DNA of 64,000 bases from Holophagales bacterium. Lineage in GTDB: Bacteria > Acidobacteriota > Thermoanaerobaculia > Multivoradales > Multivoraceae. The notes under the pieces were generated by a model, which saw only the letters and a list, made by a program, of their open reading frames with translations, was not told where the DNA came from and did no database searches. This document shows, piece after piece, positions 34,264 through 59,474 of the stretch (its first letter is position 1; each line of letters opens with the position of its first letter). Location: positions 449,037-513,036 of the forward strand of contig VXVC01000004.1 of the NCBI GenBank assembly GCA_009836625.1, in the 5' to 3' direction. The translations under genes and the position numbers were made by a program.

Positions 34264-34718
34264 CGCGTCCCCAGCGGCTCGTAGAGAACGGCCAGCAGTT
34301 CGTAGCCGGCGTCATCGTCGCTCATCGCCACGGTCGCCACGCCGGCCTCTTCCAGCCCGGCGACGAACGGATCCGGATACTCCGCGGTCACCGGTGCTTC
34401 CGGAATGGTCTCCGAAGCCATGGGCTGCGTGCCGGAACCGAGCGTCGTGACCAGCGCGGCCCCGGCCGCGAGCGCGCCGACGGGCGACAGGCGCAGGGCC
34501 AGCAGCCGCCACGGCGCGGCCTGGTCCCGGCGCTCCAGCCAGGCGTCGCGACGGGCTCCGAAGCCCGCCAGGAACGCCGGCGCAGCGGGCGGCGCCGCGC
34601 ACTCCTCACGCATCCCCTCGAACAGCGCGTCGAGCTTCCCGACCTCCTCCGGTCGGTCCGACCCGATGCGCCGAGTGTCGGTGCGCCGGCCTTCCGGCCG
34701 GCTCTTCTCCTCCCTCAT
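34260..34718 (-). CDS. Putative anti-sigma factor (single-pass membrane protein)
   Basis: 152 aa with a central TM helix (WRLLALRLSPVGALAAGAALVTTLG). Its start ATG overlaps the ECF sigma stop (ATGA). There is no zinc-finger motif, so assignment is by position only. Confidence 0.5.
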   Translation of the reverse strand: MREEKSRPEGRRTDTRRIGSDRPEEVGKLDALFEGMREECAAPPAAPAFLAGFGARRDAWLERRDQAAPWRLLALRLSPVGALAAGAALVTTLGSGTQPMASETIPEAPVTAEYPDPFVAGLEEAGVATVAMSDDDAGYELLAVLYEPLGTR

Positions 34719-35392
34719 CACGTACCTCCCCCTCCCCTGGAGTCCGGCTCGCCGAGCCGGCGCCGGAGCTTCTGCCGGCCCCGATGCACCCGGATCTGCG
34801 CCGTGCCGATCGGACAGCCCAGACACTCCGCGATCTCAACGTACTTCATTCCCACCACATCCTTCAGCACGACCGCCGTTCGCTGGCTCTTCGGCAAACG
34901 CGCCAGCTCGCGCACGAGAGCGCGCCGCAGCAGCCGCGACTCCACGGCCGACTCCGCTCCGGCCGCCGGCAGTTCGGCGAGCGCTTCATCCCCGACGTTC
35001 CGGTCCAGCCGCTTGCCCCAGCGCGCCGACCGGCGCAGCTCGTCGTGGGCCCGGTTGATCGCGATCCGGTAGAGCCAGCTCTTGAACGCGGCCGACTCTC
35101 CCAGGTCCCCGAGCTTCCGGTAGGCCAGCAGGAAGGCGTCCTGGGCCACGTCCTCGGCGACCTCCCAGTTGAGTACGTAGCCGTAGACCAGCTTGCGGAG
35201 CGGTATCTCGTACCGAAGCACAAGGGCCTCGAACGCCGTGGCGTCTCCCGCCGACGCCCGTCGAACGAGTTCGACATCCTCGGAAGGGCCGGTCGACCCG
35301 AGGATCGATTCCCGGTCGGACGCTTTCTGAGCTGGCAAGTCATCATCCTCTCGGTGCAGGGACGACCCGCCGGCGACCCTTGTTTCGCTCAT
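34718..35392 (-). CDS. ECF-family RNA polymerase sigma factor (sigma-70 regions 2 and 4)
   Basis: Region 2 (FEALVLRYEIPLRKLVYGYVLNWEVAEDVAQDAFLLAYRKL) and region 4 (RTAVVLKDVVGMKYVEIAECLGCPIGTAQIRVHRGRQKLR). Start is the ATG at 35392; an alternative GTG at 35416 overlaps the cca stop. Confidence 0.85.
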   Translation of the reverse strand: MSETRVAGGSSLHREDDDLPAQKASDRESILGSTGPSEDVELVRRASAGDATAFEALVLRYEIPLRKLVYGYVLNWEVAEDVAQDAFLLAYRKLGDLGESAAFKSWLYRIAINRAHDELRRSARWGKRLDRNVGDEALAELPAAGAESAVESRLLRRALVRELARLPKSQRTAVVLKDVVGMKYVEIAECLGCPIGTAQIRVHRGRQKLRRRLGEPDSRGGGGT

Positions 35393-35412
35393 CCGGCCGC
35401 TCGGGGAACCGC

Positions 35413-36846
35413 TCACGATTCCGTACCGCCGGAGTTGCCAGGTCCTAGCCCGGCGACAGCCCGGCGCCGGAGCAGCGAATCGAGGAAGCGCAGGCCCGCG
35501 GTCCTCCCCTCGAAAGCGCCGTCCAACTGTGCCTGGTAGCAGCGATCGACGAGAACGCCAATCTCGGGACCGGGCGAAAGACCACGGGCGATCAGGTCGC
35601 GTCCGAGCACGAGCCGGGTCGGCGCCTGGTCCCTGATCCTCAGAGCTTCCGCCCGCGAAAGCAGCCAGTCGCAGTCCTCGCAGTCCGCTGGCGGCAGCGG
35701 CGGACGGCCCCTGGCGTCGGCGCGCGCGACCCGCACCAGACGGTCGATCCGTTTCACCCGGTGGGCCAACCGGCGAACGGCGGCGTCCCCGGCGCCCCCC
35801 TGATAGAGCTGCCGCGGCTTGAGGTGGTCGACGACGAGCCGCACCACGTCGTCAACCAGCCCGCGCTGGTTCGTGAGCCGGGCCATGAAGCTCCGGGTGG
35901 GCCCCTCGCCGGCCGCCTCATGGCCGCGGGAACGCAGTCGGCCGTCGACGAATCTGGTCGTCGCGGGCTTGCCCAGGTCGTGGCAGACGCAGGCCAGTCC
36001 GACCACCAGGTCCTCCTCCTCGTCGCCCAGGCGCTCGGTCGCGAAGGCGTCCAGAACGTGCCCCGTATGGCTCCAGACGTCGCCTTCGGGATGCCATTCC
36101 GGATCCTGTTCGCAGCCGACCGTGGCCTGGAGTTCGGGGTAGCCCTGAAGCCACCCGCTCGCCTCCAGGAACCGCAGGCCGCGGCCGATCTCGATTCCCT
36201 GAAGGAGGAGTTTCCGCCACTCGTCGAAGACCCGCTCGACGCTCAGTTCCCGCCAGCCGATCCCGGAACAGAGACGGACGGTGTCCGGGTCCGGTTCGAG
36301 CCCCAGCCGGGCTGTGAGCTGCATCCCGCGCAACACGCGGAGCGGATCCTCCGGGAACCGGTGCGAGGCGTGACGCAACCGCCCGCGCTTGAGGTCCGCC
36401 CTGCCTCCGAGAGGATCCTCGACCCGGCCGGCCAGCGGTTCGTACGAGATCGCGTTGATCGTGAAGTCTCGGCGCTCAGCGGCCTGTCCGACGGTCATGT
36501 CCGGGTCGGCGTCAACGAGGAAGTCGCTGTGACCGGCTCCGACGCTGACCTCACGACGCGGCAGGGCAACGTCGACGGGAACGCCGCGCAGCTTGACGAC
36601 CGAGAAGGCGCGTCCGACCCGGTCGACCCGCAGGCCCAGGTCCTCCAGCATTCGGTCGAGGTCCTTCGGCTCGATCCGGAAGGCCTCGAGGTCGAACTCG
36701 GTGAACGGCCGATCGAGCATCGCGTCCCGCACCGAGCCCCCCACCACGCGGACACAACCGCCCCGCTCCGCCGCGGCCCGGCAGATCTGCAGCACCTTCG
36801 GCCAGGCCGGATGGCGCGCGAGGCGAGAGCCAGGATCCGCAACCAC
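35413..36846 (-). CDS. cca: CCA tRNA nucleotidyltransferase with C-terminal HD domain
   Basis: Pol-beta nucleotidyltransferase head (VVGGSVRDAMLDRP...DFTINAI) and an HD motif (GHVLDAF...CVCHDLGKP). Confidence 0.8.
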   Translation of the reverse strand: MVADPGSRLARHPAWPKVLQICRAAAERGGCVRVVGGSVRDAMLDRPFTEFDLEAFRIEPKDLDRMLEDLGLRVDRVGRAFSVVKLRGVPVDVALPRREVSVGAGHSDFLVDADPDMTVGQAAERRDFTINAISYEPLAGRVEDPLGGRADLKRGRLRHASHRFPEDPLRVLRGMQLTARLGLEPDPDTVRLCSGIGWRELSVERVFDEWRKLLLQGIEIGRGLRFLEASGWLQGYPELQATVGCEQDPEWHPEGDVWSHTGHVLDAFATERLGDEEEDLVVGLACVCHDLGKPATTRFVDGRLRSRGHEAAGEGPTRSFMARLTNQRGLVDDVVRLVVDHLKPRQLYQGGAGDAAVRRLAHRVKRIDRLVRVARADARGRPPLPPADCEDCDWLLSRAEALRIRDQAPTRLVLGRDLIARGLSPGPEIGVLVDRCYQAQLDGAFEGRTAGLRFLDSLLRRRAVAGLGPGNSGGTES

Positions 36847-40539: not shown

Positions 40540-43500
40540 CTAGCTACCGCGTAGCGCCGGCAGCAGGTCTTCCCGGGTAACCCGTCTTACCGCCGCAAGG
40601 CTCGCCAGCGTGCCGGCTGCCAGCACCAGCAGCAGGGTGAGTCCGAGCGACAGCCACGGCACCAGCGCGTGACCGCCGAGCAGGTGCGGGCTCACCGCGA
40701 CGAGCGCCGAGGCGGCGCCCACCGTGACGCCGGCCGCCAGGAGCAGGCTGTTCTCAGCCACCACCAGCCAGGCCAGGGCGCGCCGCCAGAAGCCGATCGC
40801 CTGCATCGTTGCCAGCTCGCCCCGCCGCTCCAGCAGGTTGCGCAGCAGCACCACCGAGAGGCCCAGCGTGCCGAGCAGCAAGCCGAGTCCGCCCAGGGTC
40901 TGGAAGGTGCCGAGGTAGGTGTTCTCGACCGCCTGGAACGCCTGTAGTCGCTGGGCGGTGGGGACGGCGTCGAAACCGAAGCCGGCCAGCGTCCGCTCGA
41001 GCTCCTGCATCGTCCGGTCCTGCTCGTCCGGTTCGGTTCGCAGCAGGAAGTAGGAAGCGCCCGTCCGGCTCGGGAAGTGCCTCGCCAGGTTCGCCTCGGA
41101 GATCACGAGTTCGCTCTGGAACACGCTCTTGCGCAGAAGCCCGACCAGCCGCAGTTCGATCGTCTCCCCACGCTCCGTCTCGACCTCGATGCCCTGACCG
41201 AGCCCCGAATGGAGAATCCACATGACGGAGTTGAAATCGCCGATCGCCGGAACGATGCCGGGGCCGAGGTCCTGCTCCAGCAGTACCCAGGGCGCCTCGC
41301 CCGCCTCGGAGATGAGCGACTGGAAGCGAAAGCCCCCGCGCTCTATGAACTCCGGCGGCGCGCCGAGCAGCCGCGGCCTCTCCGGCTGGAACAGGTTCAG
41401 GCAACTGATGTCGTCGCCGGGCACCGTCCGGAAGGCAACGATCTCGGCGCGTCCGACGAGATCGGAAGCCTCCTCGCCGAAGCCCAGCTCGTAGCGTCCC
41501 TCCACGCTTGTCATGTCCGCGAGAACGGAGACATCGGACTCCGCGACCAGATCGAAACCTCCGGCCCCCGAATCCAGACTCCTCGTCTCCTCGCCGAAAC
41601 GGAGTCCGTAGGCGCCGACGGCCACGATGACGAACGACGCGCTCGCCACCAGGGCGGCGCAGAGCAGGCTCCGCCCCGGATTGAGCGAGGCGTTGGCCGC
41701 CGCCATGCTGGAGCCGGCGCGCCAGGACCAGCTCCGGAGCGGGGCTTCCGGCCGCCGGCGCAGCCAAAGTGTAAAACCGGCAAGTCCGGCGATCAGGAGG
41801 CAGGCGCCGCCGGAGAAGAACAGATAGGCGGCCGACGACGCCGGGGCAGCAGCCGACCCGCCGAGCAGGGCGACAGCGAGACCGCCGGCGATCCCCCTGG
41901 TCCAGCGCGCCCTGCGTCCCGGCGCTGACACCGCCGCCGGTCGCTCGGTGGTCTCTCCCCGCAGCAACCGGATGGGCGACACGGCCGCCAGCCGGCCGAC
42001 AGCGCCCCGGATCGCGAAGAACACGACGAGGAGCGAACCGGCGCCGCCCAGGGCCAGCGTCAGAGGCTCGACGTGGAGGTAGAGATGACTCGAACCGACG
42101 GCGGAGCGCCACAGGGTCCGGAGCGCGGCCATCATCGCGCCGGCATAGAGCACCGCTCCGCCCAGGCCGAGCAGGACACCCGCCCCGCCGAGCAGGGCGC
42201 CTTCGACCAGGAAACGCCGCCGAACCCGCTTGATGCCGTGGCCGAGCGCCAGCAGCAGGCCCATCTCGTTGGCGCGGCTCTCGGTTCCCAGACGGAAGAA
42301 CAGGCCCACCAGCAACGCTGCGGAGACGATCAGAAACAGGCTGAAACCAATGAACAGACCCCCGAAGTCGGTGGCGCCGGTGGCGCCCCGCAGGCCCGCG
42401 GCCTTGACCGCCTCGACCGCCAGACCCGCCGCGTGCAGCTCGACGCGTTCCGGCGCCTCTCCCTCGAGAGCGGCCCGGAGTTGACCCGGCGAGTCTCCGT
42501 CCGCGGGCAGCAGCCGGAACGAGGTGAGAAGACCGAAGCGGCTGGACCAGAGCTCGGCGCCGTACTCAAGGGAGACGAACAGCTTCGGGGTTGCCCGATG
42601 TTCATCCCAGTAGGCCTCGTCCTGGTCCCTGATCCGGCTGAGATCGACCGGGAAGGTCGGGTCCCAGTCGCTCATGTTGTCGGCGTCGGCTACGCCGGGA
42701 AAGTCCGGCGTCAGGGTGCGATCCGCAGCCCAGCCCGTCATCTCGACCACGCCCGCCACGGTGGCCTGAACCGGCCGCTCGACCAACTGTTCGCGATCGC
42801 CGATCACGAAGTAGTCGATCGTCAGCCGGTCGCCCTCACCGACCCCAAGGTCCTCCGCTAGGAAGGTGTTGACGAGCACCTCGCCAGGCGCGAGCGCCGG
42901 CGCCGGCCGACCGTCGGCCAGCCGCAGCACGCCGAGCTCGCCGGCCCTCCCCGTATCGAGCGCGGCGATCGTCGAGTAGGGAGCCGCGGCGCCGTTCTCC
43001 GCGCCGGTCCGGTTGGCGAGATAGGTCGAGACGCCGATCGCCTCAACACCCTGGTCCCGCGCCAGGACCTCCACCGCCCCGGCGAGCTCCTCGCCGAAGA
43101 CGATCTGGGAACTGGTGATGCGCAGGTGATCTTCCGCCTCGGCGAACGCCAGGCTGAAGTCGGCCGCCTGAGCATGGGAGCGAATCCGGCGCTCGAGATC
43201 CAGCGCCGCGGCTTCGGGTTCGCCGGCCTCCCCGAGCTCGCCCACGAGCAACGCGTTCGCCAGACCGCGCCGATCAAGCTCCCGCTGCAGGTCGCGAAGC
43301 CGCACGTAGCCGACCAGGGGCTGGCTCTGGTGGGGTGACAGCTGGAAGCGGCCGGGGCCCTCGTCCTCGAGCACGGAGACCACGCTCAGCCGCATGCTCT
43401 CCAACTGGTCCTCGGGGTCCTTCTCCCCCATCAGGCTCGCCCGCGGCGCCTCGCTCGGCCGCTCGAGGTAGAGCACGACGGAGTCGCCGGTCTCGACCGC

Positions 43501-43965
43501 CAGGGCCTCCGCAAGCGAGCGGTTGACCGCCAGCGAAGCGAAGAGCTGGCCATCGCGCCGGGACAGGTCGAGCTGCTCCGCGGCGCTCGGGAAGAAGGAG
43601 CCGAACCCGTCGTCGATCCCCTGGACGTTCACCCGGGCGGCGCGCCGGCCACTCTCCGGTTCGACGACGCTGCCCTGCATCAGGATCGCGGCCGACACCG
43701 GACCGTAACGGGCAGTGAAGGCGGCGTCGCCGGCCAGTTCGTTCCGCAGTTGCTCGCGGAAAAAGCCGGCGCCGAGAAGCGCGTGATCGATGCCGCCCAG
43801 GCGGTCGAGTGTGAGTTGGCGCAGACTTCCCCGCACCGAGTCTCCGACCATCAGGGCGCCGGTCAGTACCGAGGCCGCGACCGCCGCGGTCAGCACCACC
43901 GCGACGTTCGAGCGCCAGTAGTGACGGAGACTCGGCAAGGGGCCGGAAGGGCGAGCAACAACCAC
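40540..43965 (-). CDS. ABC transporter permease with duplicated FtsX domains (MacB-like, 1141 aa)
   Basis: Two 4-TM FtsX modules, each preceded by a large periplasmic domain. It lies 4 nt downstream of the MacB/LolD-type ATPase. Confidence 0.8.
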   Translation of the reverse strand: MVVARPSGPLPSLRHYWRSNVAVVLTAAVAASVLTGALMVGDSVRGSLRQLTLDRLGGIDHALLGAGFFREQLRNELAGDAAFTARYGPVSAAILMQGSVVEPESGRRAARVNVQGIDDGFGSFFPSAAEQLDLSRRDGQLFASLAVNRSLAEALAVETGDSVVLYLERPSEAPRASLMGEKDPEDQLESMRLSVVSVLEDEGPGRFQLSPHQSQPLVGYVRLRDLQRELDRRGLANALLVGELGEAGEPEAAALDLERRIRSHAQAADFSLAFAEAEDHLRITSSQIVFGEELAGAVEVLARDQGVEAIGVSTYLANRTGAENGAAAPYSTIAALDTGRAGELGVLRLADGRPAPALAPGEVLVNTFLAEDLGVGEGDRLTIDYFVIGDREQLVERPVQATVAGVVEMTGWAADRTLTPDFPGVADADNMSDWDPTFPVDLSRIRDQDEAYWDEHRATPKLFVSLEYGAELWSSRFGLLTSFRLLPADGDSPGQLRAALEGEAPERVELHAAGLAVEAVKAAGLRGATGATDFGGLFIGFSLFLIVSAALLVGLFFRLGTESRANEMGLLLALGHGIKRVRRRFLVEGALLGGAGVLLGLGGAVLYAGAMMAALRTLWRSAVGSSHLYLHVEPLTLALGGAGSLLVVFFAIRGAVGRLAAVSPIRLLRGETTERPAAVSAPGRRARWTRGIAGGLAVALLGGSAAAPASSAAYLFFSGGACLLIAGLAGFTLWLRRRPEAPLRSWSWRAGSSMAAANASLNPGRSLLCAALVASASFVIVAVGAYGLRFGEETRSLDSGAGGFDLVAESDVSVLADMTSVEGRYELGFGEEASDLVGRAEIVAFRTVPGDDISCLNLFQPERPRLLGAPPEFIERGGFRFQSLISEAGEAPWVLLEQDLGPGIVPAIGDFNSVMWILHSGLGQGIEVETERGETIELRLVGLLRKSVFQSELVISEANLARHFPSRTGASYFLLRTEPDEQDRTMQELERTLAGFGFDAVPTAQRLQAFQAVENTYLGTFQTLGGLGLLLGTLGLSVVLLRNLLERRGELATMQAIGFWRRALAWLVVAENSLLLAAGVTVGAASALVAVSPHLLGGHALVPWLSLGLTLLLVLAAGTLASLAAVRRVTREDLLPALRGS

Positions 43966-43969
43966 CGCG

Positions 43970-44671
43970 TCAGCCTCCGGCCGCCGGTTCTGGCGAGACC
44001 TCCCGAATCAGGCCGGCGCGCAGCTCCACCCGGCGCGGCAACCTCGCGGCCAGCTCCAGGCTGTGCGTCACGACGATCAGGGCGCTCTCCTCATCGCCGT
44101 GGAGTTCGAGCAGCAGGTCGGCTACCGAACCCGCCGTCTCTCCGTCCAGGTTGCCCGTGGGCTCATCGCACAGGACCAGACTCGGCCGGTTGATCACCGC
44201 GCGCACGATCGCCGCCCGCTGCCGCTCACCACCCGACAACTGGGCGGGCCGATGATCGATGCGGGCACCCAGGCCAACGCGCTCCAGCAGCGCCCGCGCG
44301 CGCCCTTCCGCGTCGCTCTCTCCGTTCCCGGCGGCCACGGTCGGGAGCAGGACGTTCTGCAGCATCGTGTACTGCGGCAGCAGGTAGTGATCCTGGAACA
44401 CCAGGCCGACGCGGCGGCTCCTGAAGCCCGCCAGTTCGCGCTCGGGCAGATCGTGTGCCGCCTCGCCGCCGATCCGGATGCTGCCCGAAGTCGGCGTCTC
44501 GAGAGTCGCGGCAAGATGCAGCAAGGTGCTCTTGCCGCTGCCGGACGGACCCGTGACCGCCATCGCTTCACCCGAATCGAGAGAGAAGGAGATGCCCCGC
44601 AGCACCTCGACGGCGCCCGCCTCGGTGCCGTAGGACTTCGTGACCTGCTCGAAGCGAAGGGCCTCAGCCAT
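43970..44671 (-). CDS. ABC transporter ATP-binding protein (MacB/LolD family)
   Basis: Walker A GPSGSGKST, signature LSGGERQRAAIVRA, Walker B LVLCDEPTGNLD, H-loop VVTHS. Confidence 0.9.
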   Translation of the reverse strand: MAEALRFEQVTKSYGTEAGAVEVLRGISFSLDSGEAMAVTGPSGSGKSTLLHLAATLETPTSGSIRIGGEAAHDLPERELAGFRSRRVGLVFQDHYLLPQYTMLQNVLLPTVAAGNGESDAEGRARALLERVGLGARIDHRPAQLSGGERQRAAIVRAVINRPSLVLCDEPTGNLDGETAGSVADLLLELHGDEESALIVVTHSLELAARLPRRVELRAGLIREVSPEPAAGG

Positions 44672-46028
44672 GACCGGCCGATGCTAGCGCCGGCCCGGCG
44701 ACGCCGCTTCCGCGACTAGCCAGTCCGCGCCGGTACGACGCGAGGGTTTCCGCGGCCATCAGCCCCGCCGCGTAGTGGCGGCGCACGCCCGCGATGCCGG
44801 ACCGGCCCAGGTGGCGCCGGCGTTCGGCGTCGCCCGCCAACTGCTCGACGGCGTCCGCGAGTGCCGACGGATCGCCGGCCGGCACCAGCGTGCCGCCTCC
44901 CGTCCGCTCGAGCATCTCCGGGAACGCGCCGTGGTCGGGCAGCACGGCGGGGACGCCGTTCGCCATCGCCTCGAGCGCCGGCAATCCCTTCGCCTCCCGG
45001 TAGACCGTCGGCAGCAGGAGAGCGTGCAGGCTGCACAGCAGCTCGATCTTCTGCTCGCGGGTGACCTCTCCCAGCCAGTCGAAGTGGGGCTCGAGACCCC
45101 AGTCGGTGATCCGTTGCCGTTGCTCCTCGAAGTACTTCCGGTCGCGGCCGCCGAGATAGCCCGCCGCGCGAAGACGCACCTGGCCCGGCCCCAGACGCTC
45201 GCTCAGCGCCTTGAAGGCCTCGACGGCAAGATGAAACCCCTTCTCCGGGCACATCCGCGCCAGGTAACCGATGATCAGGGGCGAATCCGGAGGTTCCGCA
45301 TCGCGACCACCGTGCCCCTCGAGCTCGATGCCCAGCCGCGCGACATCGATGCCGGCCGCCGGCAACTCGAGCAGTTCGGCCATCGTCTCCGCGTAGTAGT
45401 CGTTCGGCGCCACCAGGACGTCGACTTCGCGTACCCGCTTCCGCATCTCCTCGACCACCAGGGACTTGTGCGGCTCGTCCAGGTCCTGGAGGAAGATGTC
45501 CTCGCCCTGGAGGCCGCAAACGACCAGCGCCTCCGGAAGCGCCTCACGGAGCCGGTGGACCATCCCCACCAGCATCGAGTTCGTCAGGTGGACGACGTCG
45601 GGCCGGAACTCGCCGGCGAGCCATCTCGAGAGGCTCTGAAGCTCCGCCAGTTGACGCCCCTCCTCGCCCCGCACCATGGACAACGCGAGTTCTCCGAGTT
45701 CGCGGGCGTCGGTAGCCGACGCCGACCGTGCGACCCGGGCCAGCAACGCGGGGTTGTCCAGCAACCGGCGGATCGCCGCCGGCGCCCGACTCCACAGCGG
45801 CAGCTTCTGCTCAAGGTAGATGTTGACCGCGCCGTAGAAGACCCGGCCGTAGCTCACGTTCTCCTCGTCCGTCCGGAGAGGGGTGTAGATGGGCAGCAGC
45901 AGCGCGTTGTGCCCGCGGTGCTGGAGTTCGCGCACCAGGGTGTTGTCGTGGATGCAACTGCCGCAGAGCATGCCGCCGGCGCCAGCCGCCAGGTAGGCGA
46001 TGCGGAGCGGCTGGTCCGTACCGTTCAT
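44664..46028 (-). CDS. Glycosyltransferase family 4 (GT-B fold)
   Basis: GT4 C-terminal EX7E-type region (EAKGLPALEAMANGVPAV) and an N-terminal CGSC-containing domain. The true ATG at 46028 overlaps the symporter stop (ATGA); the 3' end overlaps the ATPase start by 8 nt. Confidence 0.75.
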   Translation of the reverse strand: MNGTDQPLRIAYLAAGAGGMLCGSCIHDNTLVRELQHRGHNALLLPIYTPLRTDEENVSYGRVFYGAVNIYLEQKLPLWSRAPAAIRRLLDNPALLARVARSASATDARELGELALSMVRGEEGRQLAELQSLSRWLAGEFRPDVVHLTNSMLVGMVHRLREALPEALVVCGLQGEDIFLQDLDEPHKSLVVEEMRKRVREVDVLVAPNDYYAETMAELLELPAAGIDVARLGIELEGHGGRDAEPPDSPLIIGYLARMCPEKGFHLAVEAFKALSERLGPGQVRLRAAGYLGGRDRKYFEEQRQRITDWGLEPHFDWLGEVTREQKIELLCSLHALLLPTVYREAKGLPALEAMANGVPAVLPDHGAFPEMLERTGGGTLVPAGDPSALADAVEQLAGDAERRRHLGRSGIAGVRRHYAAGLMAAETLASYRRGLASRGSGVAGPALASAGHG

Positions 46029-47482
46029 GGGATAAACCGGGCTACCCGCTCGGGCGTGGGCGGGCTGCTCAACAGGGAGCCGACGATCATGGCCAGGGTG
46101 GAACCCGCGAAGACGACGGCGACCGGCATGACGCCGGTGCCGCCGACGCTGTAGTCCGCATCGCCGATGCCGCGAACGAAGAACCAGGTCCAGAGCGCGA
46201 TCACCGTGAGGATCGACGCGCCCGCGCCCGCCGCCGTGCTCCGTCGCCAGTAGAGCGCCGCGACCACGACCGGCAGCAGGGAGGCGAAGCCCGTGAACGA
46301 CCACACCGAGAGCGCGAAGATGCTGCGCTCGGCGACCAGGGACAGCAGGAACACCGTCCCCACGACCCCGACGACGAACAGCCGGCCGAGCCGCACCTGG
46401 CGCGCCTCGTCCAGGTCGCCGCCCCAACGGTAGTGTCGGACGACGTCCTGGGTGAACATCGTGCCCAGGGAAAGCGACTGGGAGTCAAGCGAGGACATGA
46501 TGGCGGCGAAGACGCCCGCCCCCAGAAGGCCCGCGAGCAGCTCCGGCGCGTAGAGAGCGATCATCCGAACCAGGACGGAGTTCGAGGCCGCACCGTCGAG
46601 TCCTGGAAAGTCGATGTTCCCGAACAGCCCAAGCAGCACGCTGGGGATCCACACGACGGCGATGCAGACCGGATAGAGGACGACCGGCGCCTTGAAGGTC
46701 GCCGCCCGCTTCGCCGACAGCCAGTGCGCGAAGATGTGGGGAAAGGTCCCCACTGACAGGGGGATCAGCGTGTAGCTGAGCAGTCGCAGCGGGTGGATCG
46801 CGTCACCGCGAACCAGAAGCTCCGGCCGGCTCTCCGCGACCCGGTCGAGGGCCTGGCCTACGCCCCCGAGGCTGGTGACGATCAGGATCGCCGTCACCGC
46901 CCCGAGCAGCATGAACATCGCGGTCTGGAACGTGTTCACCCAGGCCGTGCCGCGAAGTCCCCCGCTCGTCACGTAGCCGATCACGACCCCCGACACGAGA
47001 AGACTGCCGAGCCACGACGGCGCCGCCCCGTCCGTGATCTGCCCCAGCACCACGCCGCCTCCCATGACGCCGATCAACAGATAGGGCAGGAGCAACAGGA
47101 CGAGCACGACGAAGAGCAGGAGGCCGATGCCGTCAGAGCCCCAGCGGGCGCGAACGAACTGCACCTGAGTCAGGAACCCGAGGCGTCTCCCCACGGCCCA
47201 GACGCGCGTGCCGACGAAGAAGAAGACGATCGGCACCATCAGGGCCGACGACGACGCCATCAGGGAGAAGACGCCGATGCCGATCCGGTAGGACTCCGCC
47301 GAAGCGCCGAGCAGGGCGAACGAGGTCATGTGCGTGCCGAACAGGGTCATCAGCAGCACGAACGGACCGATGGTCCGGCCGGCGACAAAGAAATCCTCGC
47401 CGGTCGCGGCCAGCCGGCGGTTGCTCCAGACTCCGATCACCAGAACCGCCGCAAGGTAGGCGAAGATGACGGTGAGAGTCAC
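46025..47482 (-). CDS. Sodium:solute symporter family (SSS) transporter
   Basis: 13 predicted TM helices; SSF signature region (FFVAGRTIGPFVLLMTLFGTHMTSFALLGASAESYRIGI). Confidence 0.8.
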   Translation of the reverse strand: MTLTVIFAYLAAVLVIGVWSNRRLAATGEDFFVAGRTIGPFVLLMTLFGTHMTSFALLGASAESYRIGIGVFSLMASSSALMVPIVFFFVGTRVWAVGRRLGFLTQVQFVRARWGSDGIGLLLFVVLVLLLLPYLLIGVMGGGVVLGQITDGAAPSWLGSLLVSGVVIGYVTSGGLRGTAWVNTFQTAMFMLLGAVTAILIVTSLGGVGQALDRVAESRPELLVRGDAIHPLRLLSYTLIPLSVGTFPHIFAHWLSAKRAATFKAPVVLYPVCIAVVWIPSVLLGLFGNIDFPGLDGAASNSVLVRMIALYAPELLAGLLGAGVFAAIMSSLDSQSLSLGTMFTQDVVRHYRWGGDLDEARQVRLGRLFVVGVVGTVFLLSLVAERSIFALSVWSFTGFASLLPVVVAALYWRRSTAAGAGASILTVIALWTWFFVRGIGDADYSVGGTGVMPVAVVFAGSTLAMIVGSLLSSPPTPERVARFIP

Positions 47483-47727
47483 CTCCGGTCCACCCCGTCG
47501 TCATCGACCTCACCGGCCAACTCGTCGAGCACATCGCCGGGCCAGGCGACCCGCACGAGCCGCCACATCGCCAGGACGACCACGGCCGAGAACAGGACGT
47601 GGTACGACAGGCCGACCGGCAAACCCAGGAACCGGCCCGGATCGTCCCAGAACCACAGGTCGTTATGCAGCAGGTACAGCGCCGGCAGCGCGGCGTAGGC
47701 CGTGACCCGGGCTGCTCCAGCCGCCAT
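47479..47727 (-). CDS. DUF3311-like small membrane protein (typical companion of SSS symporters)
   Basis: 82 aa with two TM helices and the motif LYLLHNDLWFWDDP. It overlaps the symporter start by 4 nt. Confidence 0.6.
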   Translation of the reverse strand: MAAGAARVTAYAALPALYLLHNDLWFWDDPGRFLGLPVGLSYHVLFSAVVVLAMWRLVRVAWPGDVLDELAGEVDDDGVDRR

Positions 47728-47751: not shown

Positions 47752-49053
47752 TCAGGTGGCCTGGAGCGGCTGCGGAGTTGCCGCTGTGACCGCCTCGGGC
47801 ACATCCATCGCCCTGCCGCCGCCGGCGGCCGCGAAGGTCGCCATGTCCTCGAACATGGACGTGAAGTCCAGTTCGAACACGTCGCCGATCAGGATGCGGG
47901 TGACCTTGCTCTGATGTTGCGGGTAGAGCCGGAGGAAGGCGCCGACACTGAAGTTCCGGTCGTAGAAGACGTTGACCAGTTGCCGCACGGCCTCGACGCC
48001 GCGCATCAGCAGCGGCTGGAACGCGCCCAGGCGCTCGCCCGAGAGGTCGTCCGAGGCGATCGCCCCGATCGCGGCTTCGGCAGCCATCTCGCCCGACTTG
48101 AGCGCCAGGAAGACGCCGGACGAGTAGACCGGATCGATGAACGAGAACGCGTCGCCGATCGCGATCCAGCCGTCGCCCGCCATCTTCTCGATCCGGTAGG
48201 AGAAGTCCTTCATGACGGACACCGGGCGGCACTGATGAGCCGGCGCAATGCGCCGCTCGATCTCGCCGCAGTTCCTGACCTCCTCGAAGAAGATCTCGTG
48301 CGGCCTACCGTCGCGCTTCCTGATCAGCGCGTCCATCGGCCCGACCACCCCGACGCTCACTACGTTCCCGGCCAGCGGGATGTACCAGAACCAGCACTCT
48401 CCGGACTTCGTATGCAGGATCAGGGTCGCCCCTTCGTCCTTCCCCTCGTCCCGGATCGCACCTCGGAAGTGCGTGTAGATCGAGGCATGCCGCAGGCCGT
48501 AGTCGACCCGGCCGAGATCGAGCCGTCGCGCGAGCAAGGCGCTCTGACCCGTGGCGTCGATCACGACCCGGCTGAGGAGCTCCATCGGCCCGCCGTTGTT
48601 CGCCGCCGCGGCGCGCACGCCGACCGCACGGCCGTCCTCGAACAACACGTCGCGGACGTTGACGCCGCGGTGAACCTCCGCGCCCTGCCCTGCCGCCGTC
48701 TCCATCAAGAGCTCATCGAACTCGGAACGGCGCACCTGCCAGGTGCGGGCGCTGTCGTCGCCCGGCCGCTCCTTGTCGAAGTAGAACGGCATGGACGCCT
48801 TGCCTGTCTTCGTGAAGAACTGGACGGAGTGCTTCTCGACGAAGTGGCTCTCCTGCATCGCGCGGAGCGCTCCCATCTTCTCGAACACGCCGTGGGTGTC
48901 CGGCATCAGCGATTCGCCGATCTTGAACACCGGCGTGGCCTCGCGCTCGAGCAGCAGCGTCCGCAGGCCGCCACGTGCGGCGATCGCCGCGGCCGCCGAG
49001 CCGCCCGGGCCGGCGCCGACAACGATCACGTCGTAGGAGGACGCGGCAAACAT
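47752..49053 (-). CDS. FAD-dependent halogenase-like oxidoreductase (tryptophan-halogenase/geranylgeranyl-reductase superfamily)
   Basis: GxGxxG (VVGAGPGGSAAAAIA), a WxWxIP motif (ECWFWYIPL), and a GDAFSFIDPVYSSG FAD motif. Confidence 0.65.
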   Translation of the reverse strand: MFAASSYDVIVVGAGPGGSAAAAIAARGGLRTLLLEREATPVFKIGESLMPDTHGVFEKMGALRAMQESHFVEKHSVQFFTKTGKASMPFYFDKERPGDDSARTWQVRRSEFDELLMETAAGQGAEVHRGVNVRDVLFEDGRAVGVRAAAANNGGPMELLSRVVIDATGQSALLARRLDLGRVDYGLRHASIYTHFRGAIRDEGKDEGATLILHTKSGECWFWYIPLAGNVVSVGVVGPMDALIRKRDGRPHEIFFEEVRNCGEIERRIAPAHQCRPVSVMKDFSYRIEKMAGDGWIAIGDAFSFIDPVYSSGVFLALKSGEMAAEAAIGAIASDDLSGERLGAFQPLLMRGVEAVRQLVNVFYDRNFSVGAFLRLYPQHQSKVTRILIGDVFELDFTSMFEDMATFAAAGGGRAMDVPEAVTAATPQPLQAT

Positions 49054-49210
49054 CGGGGGGAGTCTACGGCAGGGAATCGACGCCGACCACCGGCAACCTG
49101 AGAGGCCTCGGGTGCGTAGTGCATATGTTGTAGCCTGCGCGCCTTACTTGCTCCTGTCGGGCTCGAGTCCTTCGAGTCTCGCTATCCGCAGCCTCGAGAG
49201 GTATTTGCCG

Positions 49211-51598
49211 ATGCGCTTCACTCCTGCCCCGTTTCTGACCGTCAGCCTTCCACTGGCCCTCATTGCCGGCGCCGCATCGGCGCAGGATCCCGATGACCCG
49301 GCCGATGTCGTGACGGACGAGATCACCGTTACGGCGCAGCGGATCGAGGAGTCGCTGCAGGATGTGCCGATCTCGGTCGTCGCCGTCTCCGGCGAGGAAC
49401 TGGAGCAGCAGGCGATCCTCGACGTTCAGGGGCTTGCCGGCGCGGCGCCGGGCGTCGTCGTTTCGAGTCAGAGTTCGACAACCGGAGAAGTCTCCCTGGT
49501 CATCCGCGGGATCGGCTCGAACACGTTCGGGCTGGGCACGGAGTCGACAGTCGGCTACTACATCGATGGCGCCTACCTGCCGCGGCCGCAGGGTTTCGTC
49601 AACCCCTTCCTCGACCTGGAGCGGGTGGAGATCCTGCGCGGACCGCAAGGCACGCTTTGGGGCCGCAACTCGACCGGCGGCGCGATCAACCTCGTTACCC
49701 GCGCCCCGGAGGGCCAGTTCAAGGGCCGTCTCTTCGCCTCGGCGAGCGACTTCGCGGCGCCCGAGAGCGCTTCCGGCCAGCGCTACGGACTGTCGCTGAC
49801 CGGGCCGCTGACCGAGAAGGTCTGGGCGCGGGCATCCGCCTCCGCGACGACGATCGACGACGCGACATGGAACGACCATCTTGGCCAGGGCAGCGACGCG
49901 AACGACGGTCTCTCCTTCCGGACCGGTTTGACGTTTCTTCCCTCCGACACGCTGACGTTCACGCTGCGGGCGGACGGCACGGACGACGACAGCCACGGCA
50001 ACTTCCATCTGAAGCCGGGCGACGTGTCGCCGCTGAGCCTCGTCGGCACGCTCAGCCGGTTCTACGGCTTCGAGAACCCGCTCGACGTCCACCGGATCGC
50101 GGCCAACATCGCTCCGCTGTCCCCTTACGAGGAGAACGGGTTCTCGCTCCATGTGGACAAGGTGCTGAGCGGCGGCGCGGCGAACCTGACCTCGATCAGC
50201 AGTTGGCGGGACTTCGCTTCCAGCCGCCGGGCCGACGTGGACGCGATGCCGGTCGATTTCGTCGAGAACGTCGGGGATTACGAATCCGAGTGGTGGTCGC
50301 AGGAGTTCCAGGTGAGCGGCGACCGCGACCGGGCGCGCTGGATCGCCGGTCTCTACGCCTTCGGCGAAGAAGCGAACGCAGCGACCGACACGCGCACGGA
50401 TTCCGCCCTTTTCGCGGTCTGGCTGTTCGCCAACAACCCGGGCATCTTCCTGTTCAATCCCGCCGACTTCTGCTCGCTCGGCTTCTTCGCCCCGCCGACG
50501 CTCTGCGGTCCGGCCTACTACGGCGCCGTGGCCCCCTTCCTCGGCCTGCCCTTGCCCGGGACGGTGGCTTCCGCCAACGTGTTCAACACCGTGCTCGACA
50601 GTTCGTCCTGGGCCGGCTACGGCCAGGTCGACTGGCGTCTCGGCGAGCGCACCACTCTCACCACGGGCCTCCGCTACACCAGCGACACGAAGGAACACAG
50701 CCAGACGACGATCGATTTCGTCACCTTTCAGCCCGCCACCGAGACGCTGGAGGACTCCTGGAGCGCCTTGACGCCCAAGCTCGGCCTGGAGTTTCGGCCC
50801 CGCGACGGCATGATGCTCTACGGCGCGGTGACCACCGGCTACAAGAGCGGCGGCTTCAACTCCATCTCGCTCCAGCCGTCCTTCGAAGAGGAGACGATCA
50901 CCAGCTACGAGGTCGGCGTCAAATCCCGTTCCTCGGGCGGCGTCACCTTCAACGCATCGGCGTTCAGCTACGACTACGACGACCTCCAGGTCTCCGTGCT
51001 CTTTCCCGACCGTTCCACGGTCGAGAACGCGGCGAGCGCCAGGATCCGCGGCCTGGACGTCGAACTGCTGCTGCGGCCGAATCCGCGTTTCGGCTTCGAC
51101 CTCACCTTCGAGGTCCTGGACGACGAGTTTCGTGAGTTCACCTCCCAGAACCCGACCGACGTGGCCTCGCTTCAGGACCGGTTTCTCGAAGCCGGCACGC
51201 TGGACGTGACGACCCTATTGGGAGCGGGCTACCTGATCGAGCCCACGGATCAGACCGGCAAGGGGCTGCCGCGCGCGCCCGACTTTTCCGCCGTCGCCGC
51301 GATTCGCTACGCGTTCGACCTGGGGCCCGCGGGGTCGCTCCTCGCCCGTGCCGAGTACCAGTACACGGACGACCTGGCGTTCGATCCCTTCGAGAACTTC
51401 GTCCAGCCGTCACACGGCTTGCTGCACGCCCAACTGCGCTGGACGGCGCCGAGCTCGCAGCTGTTCGTCGGTCTTTACGGGCGCAATCTCGGCGACGAGG
51501 AGTACAGCCTCACCGAGTTCTTCACCACCTACACGGGTTCCCTGCGCGTCTGGGCGCCGCCGCGAGAGGTCGGTGTCCAGCTCGGCTTCGACTTCTAG
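49211..51598 (+). CDS. TonB-dependent outer membrane receptor
   Basis: Signal peptide, TonB box (DEITVTAQR), plug (VEILRGPQGTLWGRNSTGGAINLVT), beta-barrel, and a C-terminal aromatic (…QLGFDF). The ATG at 49211 fits better than the track start. Confidence 0.88.
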   Translation: MRFTPAPFLTVSLPLALIAGAASAQDPDDPADVVTDEITVTAQRIEESLQDVPISVVAVSGEELEQQAILDVQGLAGAAPGVVVSSQSSTTGEVSLVIRGIGSNTFGLGTESTVGYYIDGAYLPRPQGFVNPFLDLERVEILRGPQGTLWGRNSTGGAINLVTRAPEGQFKGRLFASASDFAAPESASGQRYGLSLTGPLTEKVWARASASATTIDDATWNDHLGQGSDANDGLSFRTGLTFLPSDTLTFTLRADGTDDDSHGNFHLKPGDVSPLSLVGTLSRFYGFENPLDVHRIAANIAPLSPYEENGFSLHVDKVLSGGAANLTSISSWRDFASSRRADVDAMPVDFVENVGDYESEWWSQEFQVSGDRDRARWIAGLYAFGEEANAATDTRTDSALFAVWLFANNPGIFLFNPADFCSLGFFAPPTLCGPAYYGAVAPFLGLPLPGTVASANVFNTVLDSSSWAGYGQVDWRLGERTTLTTGLRYTSDTKEHSQTTIDFVTFQPATETLEDSWSALTPKLGLEFRPRDGMMLYGAVTTGYKSGGFNSISLQPSFEEETITSYEVGVKSRSSGGVTFNASAFSYDYDDLQVSVLFPDRSTVENAASARIRGLDVELLLRPNPRFGFDLTFEVLDDEFREFTSQNPTDVASLQDRFLEAGTLDVTTLLGAGYLIEPTDQTGKGLPRAPDFSAVAAIRYAFDLGPAGSLLARAEYQYTDDLAFDPFENFVQPSHGLLHAQLRWTAPSSQLFVGLYGRNLGDEEYSLTEFFTTYTGSLRVWAPPREVGVQLGFDF

Positions 51599-51613: not shown

Positions 51614-52999
51614 CTACGTGTAGCGGGCGCCGCGGTACTGCTCGTCGTAGAAGCGCGGCAGTAGCTGGTCGACGCGCAGAAGGCCGCCCTCGCTGAGTTC
51701 CACCCGTTCCGGGCCGACCGTGGCCAGTCCCTGCTCGGTCAGGCTGCCGAAGGCCTCGGCGTAGTCCTCCACGACGTCGACTCCGAACTTCCGCTCGAAG
51801 GCGCCCCGTTCCAGCCAGCCCTGCTTCAACTGCAGGATGACTTCGCGGGTCAGCCGCTCGCGCGCCGTCGTGACCAGGGCCCGGCGCGTGGCAAGACCGC
51901 CCGCGTCGATCGCAGCCAGGTAGCCGTTCCAGCGATCGTGGTTCTGCATGTGGACACCGCCCATGTGGCCGAAAGACGAGACGCCGATCGGGATCATGTC
52001 GGCGCCGCTCCATACCTCGCGGGCGTAGACGAACTTGCAGCCCCGGTCCCTCCGCATCATCGTGTAGGCACTCCAGCGCTCGAAGCCGGCGCGTTCGAAC
52101 TGCTCGAAGGCGTAGGCGTGCCACTCGCGCTTCGTGCGCCAGTCGGCGAACGCCGGTACGTCCTCGTCGCCGCGCAGCCTGGCTTTCGAGTACACCGTGT
52201 TGAAGGGCAGTTCCATCTGGTAGAGCGTGATCGAGTCCGGGTCGTAGTCGATCGTCAGTTCGACCGTCCGCTTCCAGGTCTCCCAGGTTTCGCCGACCAT
52301 GCCGGCGATCAGGTCGACGTTCAACTGTCGGAAGTCGTGCTCCCGAATCCAGTCGCGTACCCGGTAGATCTCCTTCGACACATGGGCGCGCCCATTCTCC
52401 TGGAGGATCTCGTCGTCGAAGTTCTCGATGCCGAGGCTCAGCCGGGTGACGCCGATACTGCGAATCGCTTCCAGTTTGGACCGGGTCAGCGTCCCTGGCT
52501 CGCACTCGAACGCCACCTCCTCGGCGCCGTCCCAGGAGATCACGCCCTGTAACCGCTCGGCCAGCGGAATCAACTGCTTGGCCGCGATGTAAGACGGCGT
52601 GCCGCCGCCAAAGTAGACGAAGTCGAGCTTCCGACCCCTGATCGCGGCTTTCTCCGCGAGGCGTTCGATCTCCACCCCCAGGGCGTCCAGGTAGCGGCCG
52701 ATCTGCTCGTGGTTCTTGTCGATGTACACGCGGAAGTAGCAGAACTTGCAGCGCTTGCGGCAGAACGGAATGTGGATGTAGAGGCCGAGTGAGGTGTCGG
52801 CGTCGGGCGCCCGATCGAGCGCCTCGAACGCCGCCGGGACCGCCGCTTCGTTCCAGGCCGAGTACGGCGGGTAGTTCGAGACGAAGACGGAACCGATATC
52901 CGTCGCCTCGAGATCGAGCAATCCGGTCGCAGGCTCGGGCCTGACGAGGTCGGGCCCGGCCAAGCTCGGCGGGGCGCTATGCGGTGCCTTCTGGTGCAT
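51614..52999 (-). CDS. HemN/HemW-family radical SAM protein (coproporphyrinogen dehydrogenase-like or haem chaperone)
   Basis: CX3CX2C radical SAM motif in HIPFCRKRCKFCYF; the 4th Cys of HemN is replaced by Phe/Tyr. A HemN-like N-terminal extension (NYPPYSAW) and HemN C-terminal domain are present. Confidence 0.75.
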   Translation of the reverse strand: MHQKAPHSAPPSLAGPDLVRPEPATGLLDLEATDIGSVFVSNYPPYSAWNEAAVPAAFEALDRAPDADTSLGLYIHIPFCRKRCKFCYFRVYIDKNHEQIGRYLDALGVEIERLAEKAAIRGRKLDFVYFGGGTPSYIAAKQLIPLAERLQGVISWDGAEEVAFECEPGTLTRSKLEAIRSIGVTRLSLGIENFDDEILQENGRAHVSKEIYRVRDWIREHDFRQLNVDLIAGMVGETWETWKRTVELTIDYDPDSITLYQMELPFNTVYSKARLRGDEDVPAFADWRTKREWHAYAFEQFERAGFERWSAYTMMRRDRGCKFVYAREVWSGADMIPIGVSSFGHMGGVHMQNHDRWNGYLAAIDAGGLATRRALVTTARERLTREVILQLKQGWLERGAFERKFGVDVVEDYAEAFGSLTEQGLATVGPERVELSEGGLLRVDQLLPRFYDEQYRGARYT

Positions 53000-53011
53000 C
53001 CAGCCGCTCCC

Positions 53012-54184: not shown

Positions 54185-54212
54185 GGCGCTGGGTTCCGGG
54201 GTGGCGAAGGCC

Positions 54213-55445: not shown

Positions 55446-55451
55446 AGCGCC

Positions 55452-56891: not shown

Positions 56892-56927
56892 GAGCGTGAT
56901 CCGTGGCTGTCAGGGGGGCCGTCGCTG

Positions 56928-59424: not shown

Positions 59425-59474
59425 CGTGATGGCTCCTCGTTGGCCCCCCGGCAGTGGAAGCCAGGGCTTCCCCG

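Follow-up and report, generated by a model that had tools for sequence, protein, structure and literature searches.

The substrates of type VII ABC machines come from the membrane or the periplasm, and cytoplasmic solutes are not carried across the bilayer (summary drawing on PMC12646458). Few of their partnerships are known, namely those with EnvC, LolA, MacA-TolC, BceS and TesA, and it is the partners that set the function. Among these machines, YbbAP-TesA has a topology of ten transmembrane (TM) segments and a 2:1 ratio of ATPase to permease (PMC12646458). For a sodium:solute symporter (SSS) paired with a DUF3311 protein, we found a single characterised precedent, the pyruvate/monocarboxylate transporter MctP; its gene and a DUF3311 gene are regulated together (PMC9100948). 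Moreover, a preprint of August 2026 describes orphan 'Halo_AMP' clusters of sponge microbiomes and assigns no product to them (bioRxiv 10.64898/2026.08.03.742642). Here we analyzed a window of 64,000 nucleotides from a Holophagales bacterium (contig VXVC01000004.1), in which six genes on the minus strand encode a flavin-dependent-halogenase-like enzyme, a DUF3311 protein, an SSS transporter, a glycosyltransferase of family GT4, and the ATPase and permease of an ABC machine with YbbAP-like architecture. We tentatively read these genes as the fused core of a conserved envelope system of two modules. The system would make, tailor and move a small amphiphile, with halogenation and glycosylation as the tailoring steps. 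No characterised operon of such architecture was found in the literature, in agreement with a preliminary description of this DNA.

Organization of the operon

Five ORFs, all on the minus strand at 40540-47727, were listed in the preliminary description as a coupled operon. Its coordinates and all four junctions are correct on re-reading of the sequence, and the gene identities that it gave are upheld by Pfam matches and orthologues. From 5' to 3', the five genes encode a small, hydrophobic membrane protein that probably belongs to DUF3311 (47479-47727, 82 aa) and is the usual companion of this SSS; the SSS transporter itself (46025-47482, 485 aa); a cytoplasmic GT-B glycosyltransferase of family GT4 (44664-46028, 454 aa); an ABC ATPase of the LolD/YbbA/FtsE/MacB type (43970-44671, 233 aa); and a double-FtsX permease of 1141 aa with ten TM segments and the architecture of YbbP (40540-43965). 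The five coupled genes are thus present, but the unit has six: the gene of a 433-aa FAD enzyme resembling flavin-dependent halogenases (47752-49053) lies first on the same strand, with its stop codon 24 nt 5' of the DUF3311 ATG.

The junctions are tight throughout. A GTGA stop-start overlap joins the DUF3311 and SSS genes (47479-47482), an ATGA overlap joins the SSS and GT4 genes (46025-46028), and the GT4 and ATPase genes share the 8 nt ATGGCTGA (44664-44671), all read from the sequence. The ATPase stop codon is separated by 4 nt (43966-43969) from the GTG start of the permease (43965). At the other end of the permease gene, its stop codon lies 37 nt from the end of a convergent gene for an S9 peptidase. 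Short overlaps of this size are ordinary in bacterial operons, and it is therefore the conservation across phyla, described below, that sets the arrangement above chance. None of the six proteins reached an NCBIfam equivalog cut-off. A promoter and terminator scan, which is uninformative at the 70% G+C of the host, gave no promoter-like sites, and terminator-like sites were not commoner than in shuffled sequence. At Rfam gathering thresholds, the window and three full clusters yielded two tRNAs only and no riboswitch pointing to a ligand.

Conservation and modularity across phyla

Homologues of the GT4 protein are abundant at 49-94% identity and more than 90% coverage, with relatives in more than 581 genomes in a scan of one genome per species. 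The best 80 GT4 loci were compared by tblastn with the proteins of the window, and the denominators given here are the evaluable loci. These 80 loci belong to Acidobacteriota (Thermoanaerobaculia/'Ca. Multivorans'), Poribacteria, Latescibacterota, Gemmatimonadota and KSB1; according to the record titles, many come from sponge symbionts and others from soil or from rock fractures and groundwater. The SSS gene is located directly 5' of GT4 in 52 of 78 loci, mostly less than 100 nt away. The ATPase and a permease of about 1,100 aa follow 3' of GT4 in 33 of 72, and both the SSS and the ABC genes are present in 25 of 69. The preliminary description had named synteny in related genomes as a test of the arrangement, and we find it conserved well beyond Acidobacteriota, in at least five phyla.

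Further conserved families were found by clustering the ORFs (at least 70 aa) of 24 diverse loci. A hotdog thioesterase of the YbgC/FadM type (4HBT) is encoded just 5' of the ATPase in 24 loci. Directly after GT4, 61 of 87 loci encode a protein of about 160 aa with five TM segments, named c11, in up to three tandem copies; it has no match in Pfam, NCBIfam or PDB. The halogenase-like enzyme was found in 27 loci, and an aryl-CoA ligase resembling PaaK, FlxY and BagE in loci of Latescibacterota and Gemmatimonadota. The pair of halogenase and PaaK-like AMP-binding enzyme occurs in L076-L082, which are from these two phyla, and in L084. A radical SAM (rSAM) enzyme, an iron-containing alcohol dehydrogenase (Fe-ADH), beta-propellers and a siderophore-type TonB-dependent receptor are also conserved in the clustered loci. 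A search based on the permease recovers the same cluster as the search based on GT4. A cluster for a ribosomally synthesized and posttranslationally modified peptide was considered and rejected, as the clustering of ORFs of at least 70 aa gave no conserved small precursor ORF.

The fullest form of the cluster (L087) lies on one strand nearly without gaps, in the order rSAM, propeller, TonB receptor, halogenase, DUF3311, SSS, GT4, 4HBT, ABC ATPase, FtsX permease, propeller, with a propeller gene overlapping the permease stop codon. The unit in the window is one half of this conserved neighbourhood of 11-12 genes. The neighbourhood is modular, and the adjacency of the halogenase, SSS and GT4 genes is interchangeable between loci. 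In one 6.8-Mb genome, it is split into two operons, which share a contig and are separated by roughly 60-80 kb; the first (L088) consists of propeller, Fe-ADH, propeller, rSAM, receptor, halogenase, DUF3311 and SSS genes, and the second (L002) of GT4, 4HBT, ABC ATPase and FtsX permease genes. Poribacteria often have DUF3311-SSS-GT4-c11 or GT4-c11 alone, and locus L086 has 4HBT-ABC-FtsX without GT4. At L090 (9755-11368, in a 9.3-Mb genome), a PMT_2 glycosyltransferase of the GT-C type replaces GT4 after the block of rSAM, propeller, receptor, halogenase, DUF3311 and SSS genes.

The clade of the window (L005-L015) is without the thioesterase and c11, and tblastn found neither of these nor a PaaK-like gene in the 64-kb window. 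The direct overlap of GT4 and ATPase genes is confined to the four closest relatives of the window (87-94% GT4 identity). In most lineages the YbgC-type thioesterase and the 5-TM protein stand between the two genes, and in relatives at 80-82% GT4 identity a gene on the same strand for a secreted protein of 1201 aa does so. Since the modules are separate elsewhere and the clade of the window has no thioesterase or c11, the operon is seen as the tail of one module fused to a reduced version of the other.

Other insertions were observed in related loci. The 1201-aa protein (L009, 11395-15000; also in L010 and L011) has internal repeats and a HExxH-like motif. In another close relative (L007, 12035-15742), about 3.7 kb are inserted between the ATPase and permease genes. 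In four Poribacteria loci (L003, L019, L041 and L060; for example L003, 6495-8348, and L041, 11276-12777), a fused TRAP-type DctM permease is encoded directly 5' of DUF3311-SSS, and GT4 is followed at once by one to three c11 copies in tandem.

ABC ATPase and permease

The ATPase matches the ABC_tran domain of Pfam with 115 bits. Its NCBIfam matches are LolD (242.3 bits, cut-off 307.75), YbbA (199.5 bits, cut-off 336) and FtsE (193.5 bits), none of which passed. TM segments and loop sizes of the permease were obtained from hydropathy, together with an AlphaFold2 model (pLDDT 77). TM1 precedes the first periplasmic domain (about 500 aa, residues 40-536). Three TM segments, two linker TM segments and TM7 come next, then the second periplasmic domain (about 237 aa, residues 786-1022) and the last three TM segments. 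The best Foldseek match of the permease is E. coli YbbAP (9ge7, E=1.6e-15), followed by LolCDE, BceAB, HrtBA and MacB, and a sequence search of PDB gave marginal FtsX and YtrF matches only. Among the NCBIfam models, the permease matches ADOP and DevC, both weakly, and no LolC or LolE model.

The large size and the duplicated FtsX modules noted in the preliminary description are borne out by the 1141 aa of the permease and by two FtsX stretches in Pfam. BLASTP of the N-terminal half against the C-terminal half gave no significant similarity (best E=0.7), so the duplication is visible only in Pfam and in the model. A MacB_PCD domain is matched by 8 of 25 members of the permease family. The full length of the protein is kept at 43-54% identity in distant relatives, some of them named Thermoanaerobaculia, KSB1 and Poribacteria. 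No membrane-fusion adaptor of the MacA/HlyD type was found in the Pfam-annotated neighbours of six related loci or in the conserved families of the 24 loci.

ATPase and permease fit the MacB superfamily (type VII ABC): FtsX is present twice, the periplasmic core is MacB-like, and the ATPase is of the LolD/MacB/FtsE type. By analogy, the pair would work like YbbAP, to which it is not orthologous.

Halogenase-like enzyme

The 433-aa FAD enzyme matches the Trp_halogenase profile of Pfam (E=2.8e-18). Its top sequence matches in PDB are all halogenases, led by 8zop (1.9e-57) and Bmp2 (about 1e-50), and followed by PltA, Mpy16, CndH, CmlS and RadH. Of these, Bmp2, PltA, CndH and RadH are pyrrole or phenol halogenases. 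The motifs GxGxxG, xK(H/Y)SVQF, WFW(Y/F)IP and FxDPxYS(S/T)G are all retained in 14 of 14 cluster-linked orthologues. In the protein of the window, the Lys lies in xKHSVQF and pairs with the sole Lys of that stretch in Bmp2 and 8zop, which we take to be their catalytic Lys. The enzyme thus has the full motif set of a flavin-dependent halogenase, and the activity is predicted from it. We considered a geranylgeranyl or archaeal-lipid reductase and rejected this identity: the best non-halogenase match in PDB is an archaeal geranylgeranyl reductase with 1.8e-16, against E-57 to E-33 for the halogenases, and the halogenase motifs are intact. No flavin reductase gene was recognised in the cluster. 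We found no literature on a halogenase together with FtsX and a glycosyltransferase, on a halogenase together with a solute symporter, or on PDB entry 8ZOP.

DUF3311 protein and symporter

The 82-aa protein of the window matches Pfam DUF3311 (PF11755) with 20.8 bits (E=4e-4), under the 30-bit cut-off, and 9 of 10 of its orthologues match the same family (best E=1.7e-10). A hydropathy scan gives one hydrophobic stretch at residues 36-62, and a second, N-terminal one was read by eye from the sequence. The SSS protein matches the SSF family of Pfam over residues 31-424 with 130.8 bits, well above the cut-off of 22.8. Against the NCBIfam equivalogs it scores 111.6 bits with PanF (cut-off 328), 97.3 with PutP (515), 56.9 with MctP (625) and 52 with ActP (750). 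Judged by these scores, it is a member of the sodium:solute symporter family (TC 2.A.21) that is nearest to PanF and PutP and reaches no named subfamily. The transporter family also includes the animal Na+/iodide symporter. The protein is unusually conserved, with 62-72% identity between phyla.

GT4 glycosyltransferase

The glycosyltransferase matches Glycos_transf_1 with 94.6 bits (cut-off 26.4). Its start at 46028 is backed by 20 aligned homologues; the longest ORF would extend to 46427. Residues C22, C25, C171, C260, R258, K263 and E353 are invariant in the family and E345 is nearly so, which gives an EX7E motif. The AlphaFold2 model (pLDDT 83) has the GT-B fold, and its nearest structures in Foldseek are GlgM, MshA, BshA, sucrose-phosphate synthase (SPS), LmbT and the BH4 glucosyltransferase, at 14-20% identity. 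The acceptors of these enzymes are mostly small and soluble. Sequence alignment to solved enzymes covers the C-terminal domain only. The domain score, the EX7E motif and the fold place the protein in the retaining GT-B family GT4. Within this family it reached no named equivalog (EpsE, BshA, MshA, PelF, WcaL, GlcNAc-PG synthase and others): all 19 NCBIfam matches are below their cut-offs, the best being EpsE with 89.7 of 400 bits.

The N-terminal CGSC motif pointed out in the preliminary description corresponds to C22-G-S-C25, with both Cys invariant in the family. The usual feature of GT4 enzymes at this position is a Gly-rich loop. An LQGED motif also marks the subfamily. By comparison with typical GT4 motifs, C22, C25, C171 and C260 are presumably placed in loops of the active-site cleft. 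The four Cys could be a metal site or a redox switch. Moreover, the N-terminal domain has a helical insert of about 90 aa (residues 55-140), which is poorly modelled and contains the two strongest amphipathic segments of the protein, both of them cationic. No TM segments were found by hydropathy scan. The cationic amphipathic insert and the constant neighbour c11 hint at an association with the membrane.

Neighbouring genes

A TonB-dependent receptor with plug and barrel domains is encoded on the plus strand (49112-51598), divergently from the operon, with 58 bp between the start codons. It scores 147.7 bits with the siderophore-receptor subfamily of NCBIfam, under the cut-off of 223.5. Its identity to the receptor of the canonical cluster is 27%, over the plug only, and its orientation is inverted. 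At the position of the canonical receptor, it looks like a non-orthologous replacement.

Beyond the receptor lies a block of minus-strand genes (51614-58295) with gaps of 6-36 nt, which is conserved beside halogenase-SSS genes in several phyla. It encodes a HemN-like rSAM enzyme of 461 aa with Radical_SAM and HemN_C domains (51614-52999), a secreted PQQ_2/BamB-like beta-propeller (53012-54184; Beta-prop_ACSF4 226.9 bits, PQQ_2), an ErcA-like Fe-ADH (54213-55445; Fe-ADH E=6e-43), a second secreted propeller of this kind with 479 aa and a signal-peptide-like N-terminus (55452-56891; PQQ_2 E=1.4e-26), and a third, starting with ATG at 58295 (56928-58295; BamB 75.5 bits, below cut-off), which also has a signal-peptide-like N-terminus. 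The first propeller belongs to conserved family c10; its longest ORF reaches 54481, and the GTG start at 54184 gives a signal-peptide-like N-terminus. The Fe-ADH scores 243 bits with the NCBIfam ErcA model against a cut-off of 550, and its family (c18) is present in 7 of 24 loci. The rSAM enzyme scores 176-184 bits with the HutW, HemN and STM4012 models, all under their cut-offs, and is encoded upstream in 18 of 87 loci. The rSAM enzyme and the TonB receptor were also considered as a heme-degradation pair of the ChuW/HutW kind. This was rejected on the HutW score (184 against 400 bits), and there is no heme ABC importer.

Other neighbours, named by translation alone, are an RND efflux pump-like gene (30401-33676) and an ECF sigma-like gene (34718-35416), both on the minus strand, a gene like NAD-dependent epimerases/dehydratases (58321-59532, minus strand) and a gene like family III CoA-transferases (61104-62234, plus strand). 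None of these is conserved with the cluster.

Proposed function and alternative explanations

Starting from the observed gene order and its conservation, the intact domains and motifs, and the architecture of the transporter, we infer substrates, direction of flow and partnerships as follows. Our preferred reading, put forward tentatively, is the two-module envelope system introduced above, and the amphiphile that it handles would most likely be an aryl or acyl carboxylate derivative. The Na+-coupled DUF3311-SSS pair may import a small polar precursor of the carboxylate type, which the halogenase-like enzyme, with its complete motif set, would modify. In most lineages the hotdog thioesterase might then release the molecule from a CoA thioester, which in some lineages the PaaK-like ligase would have made beforehand; the genes for both are missing from the window. 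The GT4 enzyme, of which motifs and fold are evident, would transfer the sugar of a nucleotide-sugar donor, acting on the inner side of the membrane. Finally, two ATPases and one ten-TM permease could extract the product from the inner membrane or the periplasm and pass it on, as has been proposed for YbbAP, driven by ATP-powered motion of the large periplasmic domains; the architecture is visible in the model, and the function and the partner are suggested by it. The secreted beta-propellers are candidate receivers of the product. The putative order of import, glycosylation and export, which the preliminary description had drawn, is a reasonable one.

A more specific form of this proposal is that a YbbAP-like machine with an additional periplasmic domain of about 280 aa, the propellers and the Cys-rich GT4 together release a halogenated glycoconjugate, and that DUF3311-SSS feeds the halogenase with precursor or halide. 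We give this form only a slight chance.

Several observations weigh against the two-module envelope system. No polyketide synthase, nonribosomal peptide synthetase (NRPS), ketosynthase or carrier protein is conserved in the family clustering of 24 loci, and without such a scaffold-building enzyme the proposal does not account for where the aglycone comes from. A type VII ABC machine requires its substrate to be in the outer leaflet or the periplasm, and no flippase was identified in the window. The soluble acceptors of the nearest GT4 structures fit badly with a membrane-embedded substrate, and the siderophore-type TonB receptor of the canonical cluster points toward uptake and not production. 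An SSS relative at 63% identity stands alone in an unrelated context (L089, with the DUF3311-SSS pair only), and many GT4 loci of Poribacteria have neither SSS nor ABC genes within 10 kb. With the thioesterase, the 5-TM protein and the ligase missing in the clade of the window, the pathway as drawn is incomplete here. Moreover, the functions of all members are predictions, and the product is a putative one.

One alternative is a shuttle for a metal or another scarce nutrient, in which a chelator-like compound would be secreted through the ABC machine and recovered through the TonB receptor and DUF3311-SSS, and the enzymes would make or recycle it. The canonical receptor, which is co-directional with the cluster and located immediately 5' of the halogenase, DUF3311 and SSS genes, passes the cut-off of the siderophore-receptor subfamily (230 against 223.5 bits), and BagE/FevW, which belong to the pathway of the iron-binding ferroverdin, are similar to the PaaK-like ligase. 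Import and export systems within one cluster are typical of siderophore loci, and hotdog thioesterases are found in catecholate siderophore pathways (EntH, for example). On the other hand, the family clustering revealed no NRPS, NIS synthetase, siderophore-interacting reductase or esterase in the cluster, the receptor of the window has the opposite orientation and is no orthologue of the canonical one, and most Poribacteria loci have no receptor nearby. No SSS transporter is known to us as an importer of siderophores. We consider such a shuttle unlikely.

Receptor and SSS genes upstream of conjugating and exporting genes would also suit uptake and detoxification, in the way that xenobiotics are conjugated and then exported. 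An organic acid or a phenol from outside, which might be host-derived or halogenated, would pass the receptor and the SSS, receive a sugar from GT4 and be driven out by the ABC machine. Sponge symbionts, which live among brominated phenolics, are over-represented in the family, judging from record titles. A TRAP-type DctM permease adjoins the SSS in some Poribacteria, and the pair of ligase and 4HBT is reminiscent of the 4-chlorobenzoate pathway. However, active uptake of a toxin would be unusual for a cell, the flavoenzyme has the motifs of a halogenase and not a dehalogenase/monooxygenase set, and the cluster is also present in soil and groundwater genomes. Detoxification is a decidedly improbable explanation.

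The modularity of the cluster raises the question of whether its genes are related in function at all. DUF3311-SSS could be a general importer, GT4 and the ABC machine could serve the upkeep of envelope glycolipids or lipoproteins, and the overlaps could result from genome compaction. This would agree with the halves being separate operons in one genome, with SSS alone (L089), 4HBT-ABC-FtsX without GT4 (L086) and GT4 alone in many Poribacteria, and with the secreted-protein gene that splits GT4 and ATPase in near relatives. Nevertheless, SSS is directly 5' of GT4 in two thirds of the evaluable loci (52/78), in several phyla and usually at less than 100 nt. The split halves still share one contig, and at L090 the SSS is followed by a PMT_2 glycosyltransferase, so that the link between symporter and glycosylation recurs. 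Unrelated adjacency is decidedly unlikely as well.

Lipoprotein release by a fused LolCDE-like machine, with GT4 modifying the lipoprotein cargo, is very improbable. In its favour, the ATPase matches LolD better than any other NCBIfam model (242 bits), several permease homologues are labelled 'ABC-type lipoprotein release transport system permease subunit' by JGI and the periplasmic domains of LolC and LolE are among the Foldseek matches. However, these 242 bits fall short of the LolD cut-off (307.75), neither a LolC nor a LolE model is matched by the permease, the fused ten-TM form with a first periplasmic domain of 500 aa is unlike LolC/E, and the patchy distribution is at odds with an essential housekeeping system.

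Comparison with known systems

The ABC machine of the two-module envelope system resembles YbbAP-TesA (PDB 9GE6-9GE8; PMC12646458) in having a separate ATPase and a single ten-TM permease with two FtsX modules, and in the position of its periplasmic domains between TM1-2 and TM7-8. In other lineages of the cluster, the ABC genes are also linked to a thioesterase gene. The thioesterase, however, is a cytoplasmic hotdog protein of the YbgC type, missing from the window, whereas TesA is periplasmic; no periplasmic TesA-like hydrolase is present among the annotated neighbours, and no search aimed at one was made. Further differences are the 14-15% identity of the permease to YbbP, the failure of the ATPase to reach the YbbA equivalog (NF007879, 199.5 against 336 bits), and the coupling of the ABC genes to those of a GT4 and a symporter. 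The first periplasmic domain, with about 500 aa, compares with 203-226 residues in the periplasmic domains of LolC, LolE and MacB in PDB.

With MacAB-TolC the machine shares the ABC superfamily, the FtsX-type TM helices and, in 8 of 25 family members, the MacB-like periplasmic core. MacB has its ATPase fused to a four-TM permease and acts as a dimer with the adaptor MacA and TolC. Here, in contrast, the ATPase is a separate protein of 233 aa, the permease has about ten TM segments and not four, and no adaptor gene is conserved nearby. Membership of MacAB-TolC was rejected on these grounds, and since YbbAP is also the better Foldseek match, the term 'MacB-type exporter' used in the preliminary description is too specific. 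Membership of LolCDE was likewise rejected, with the LolD score of 242.3 against 307.75 bits, no LolC or LolE match and the single ten-TM permease.

The two other conserved proteins of the operon have similarly distant counterparts. MshA, BshA, GlgM and SPS share with the GT4 enzyme the GT-B fold, the donor-binding C-terminal domain, EX7E and the R/K phosphate-binding motif; the enzyme of the window differs from them by CGSC, two further invariant Cys and the 90-aa helical insert, with 14-20% identity. MctP of Sinorhizobium fredii (PMC9100948) is an SSS-family transporter beside a DUF3311 gene, as in the window. The SSS of the window differs from it by a score of 57 bits against the MctP cut-off of 625, and is closer to PanF and PutP, also far under their cut-offs.

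The cyanobacterial system for heterocyst glycolipid export, DevBCA-HgdD with HglT, and the bartoloside brt cluster combine a glycosyltransferase, and sometimes halogenation, with an amphiphile moved outward by a MacB-family ABC transporter. The brt cluster makes halogenated glycolipids and has a Dev-like exporter cassette. The DevA and DevC models are weak NCBIfam matches of the ABC proteins described here. Unlike the cluster described here, these systems contain a membrane-fusion protein as well as synthases for polyketides or fatty acids, and a symporter is not part of them.

The Halo_AMP clusters of the preprint (bioRxiv 10.64898/2026.08.03.742642) combine a halogenase, a PaaK-like AMP-binding enzyme, PQQ-like propellers, a glycosyltransferase, a thioesterase, an rSAM enzyme, a TonB receptor and an ABC transporter, and their phyla overlap with those found here (Acidobacteriota, Latescibacterota, Poribacteria). 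BrtI matches are reported there in related sponge clusters. The likeness is one of gene classes and phyla, and any of these clusters is at most a candidate for being the one described here. The symporter, DUF3311 and FtsX go unmentioned in the main text of the preprint. Note that the Halo_AMP class is defined there by the halogenase and the AMP-binding enzyme together, so that the window, which has no AMP-binding gene, is missed by the rule.

The cluster is prominent in uncultured symbionts (Poribacteria, Acidobacteriota, Latescibacterota) that are suspected of making the halogenated metabolites of sponges, the genes for which are mostly unknown, and L087 offers a compact, defined version of 10-11 genes. 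If the more specific form of the proposal, to which we give only a slight chance, proves true, one self-contained line would take up, halogenate, glycosylate and extract its product, and no counterpart of such a line is known. Compared with the systems above, the cluster is new in joining a type VII ABC system with new partners to a GT4 subfamily and an SSS subfamily that are both uncharacterised, the former marked by CGSC and two further invariant Cys and the latter by its DUF3311 companion. To the few known partnerships of type VII ABC machines, it adds a new and testable one, in which conserved gene order ties a YbbAP-like machine to three enzymes (a glycosyltransferase, a thioesterase and one that resembles halogenases), to a symporter and to secreted propellers.

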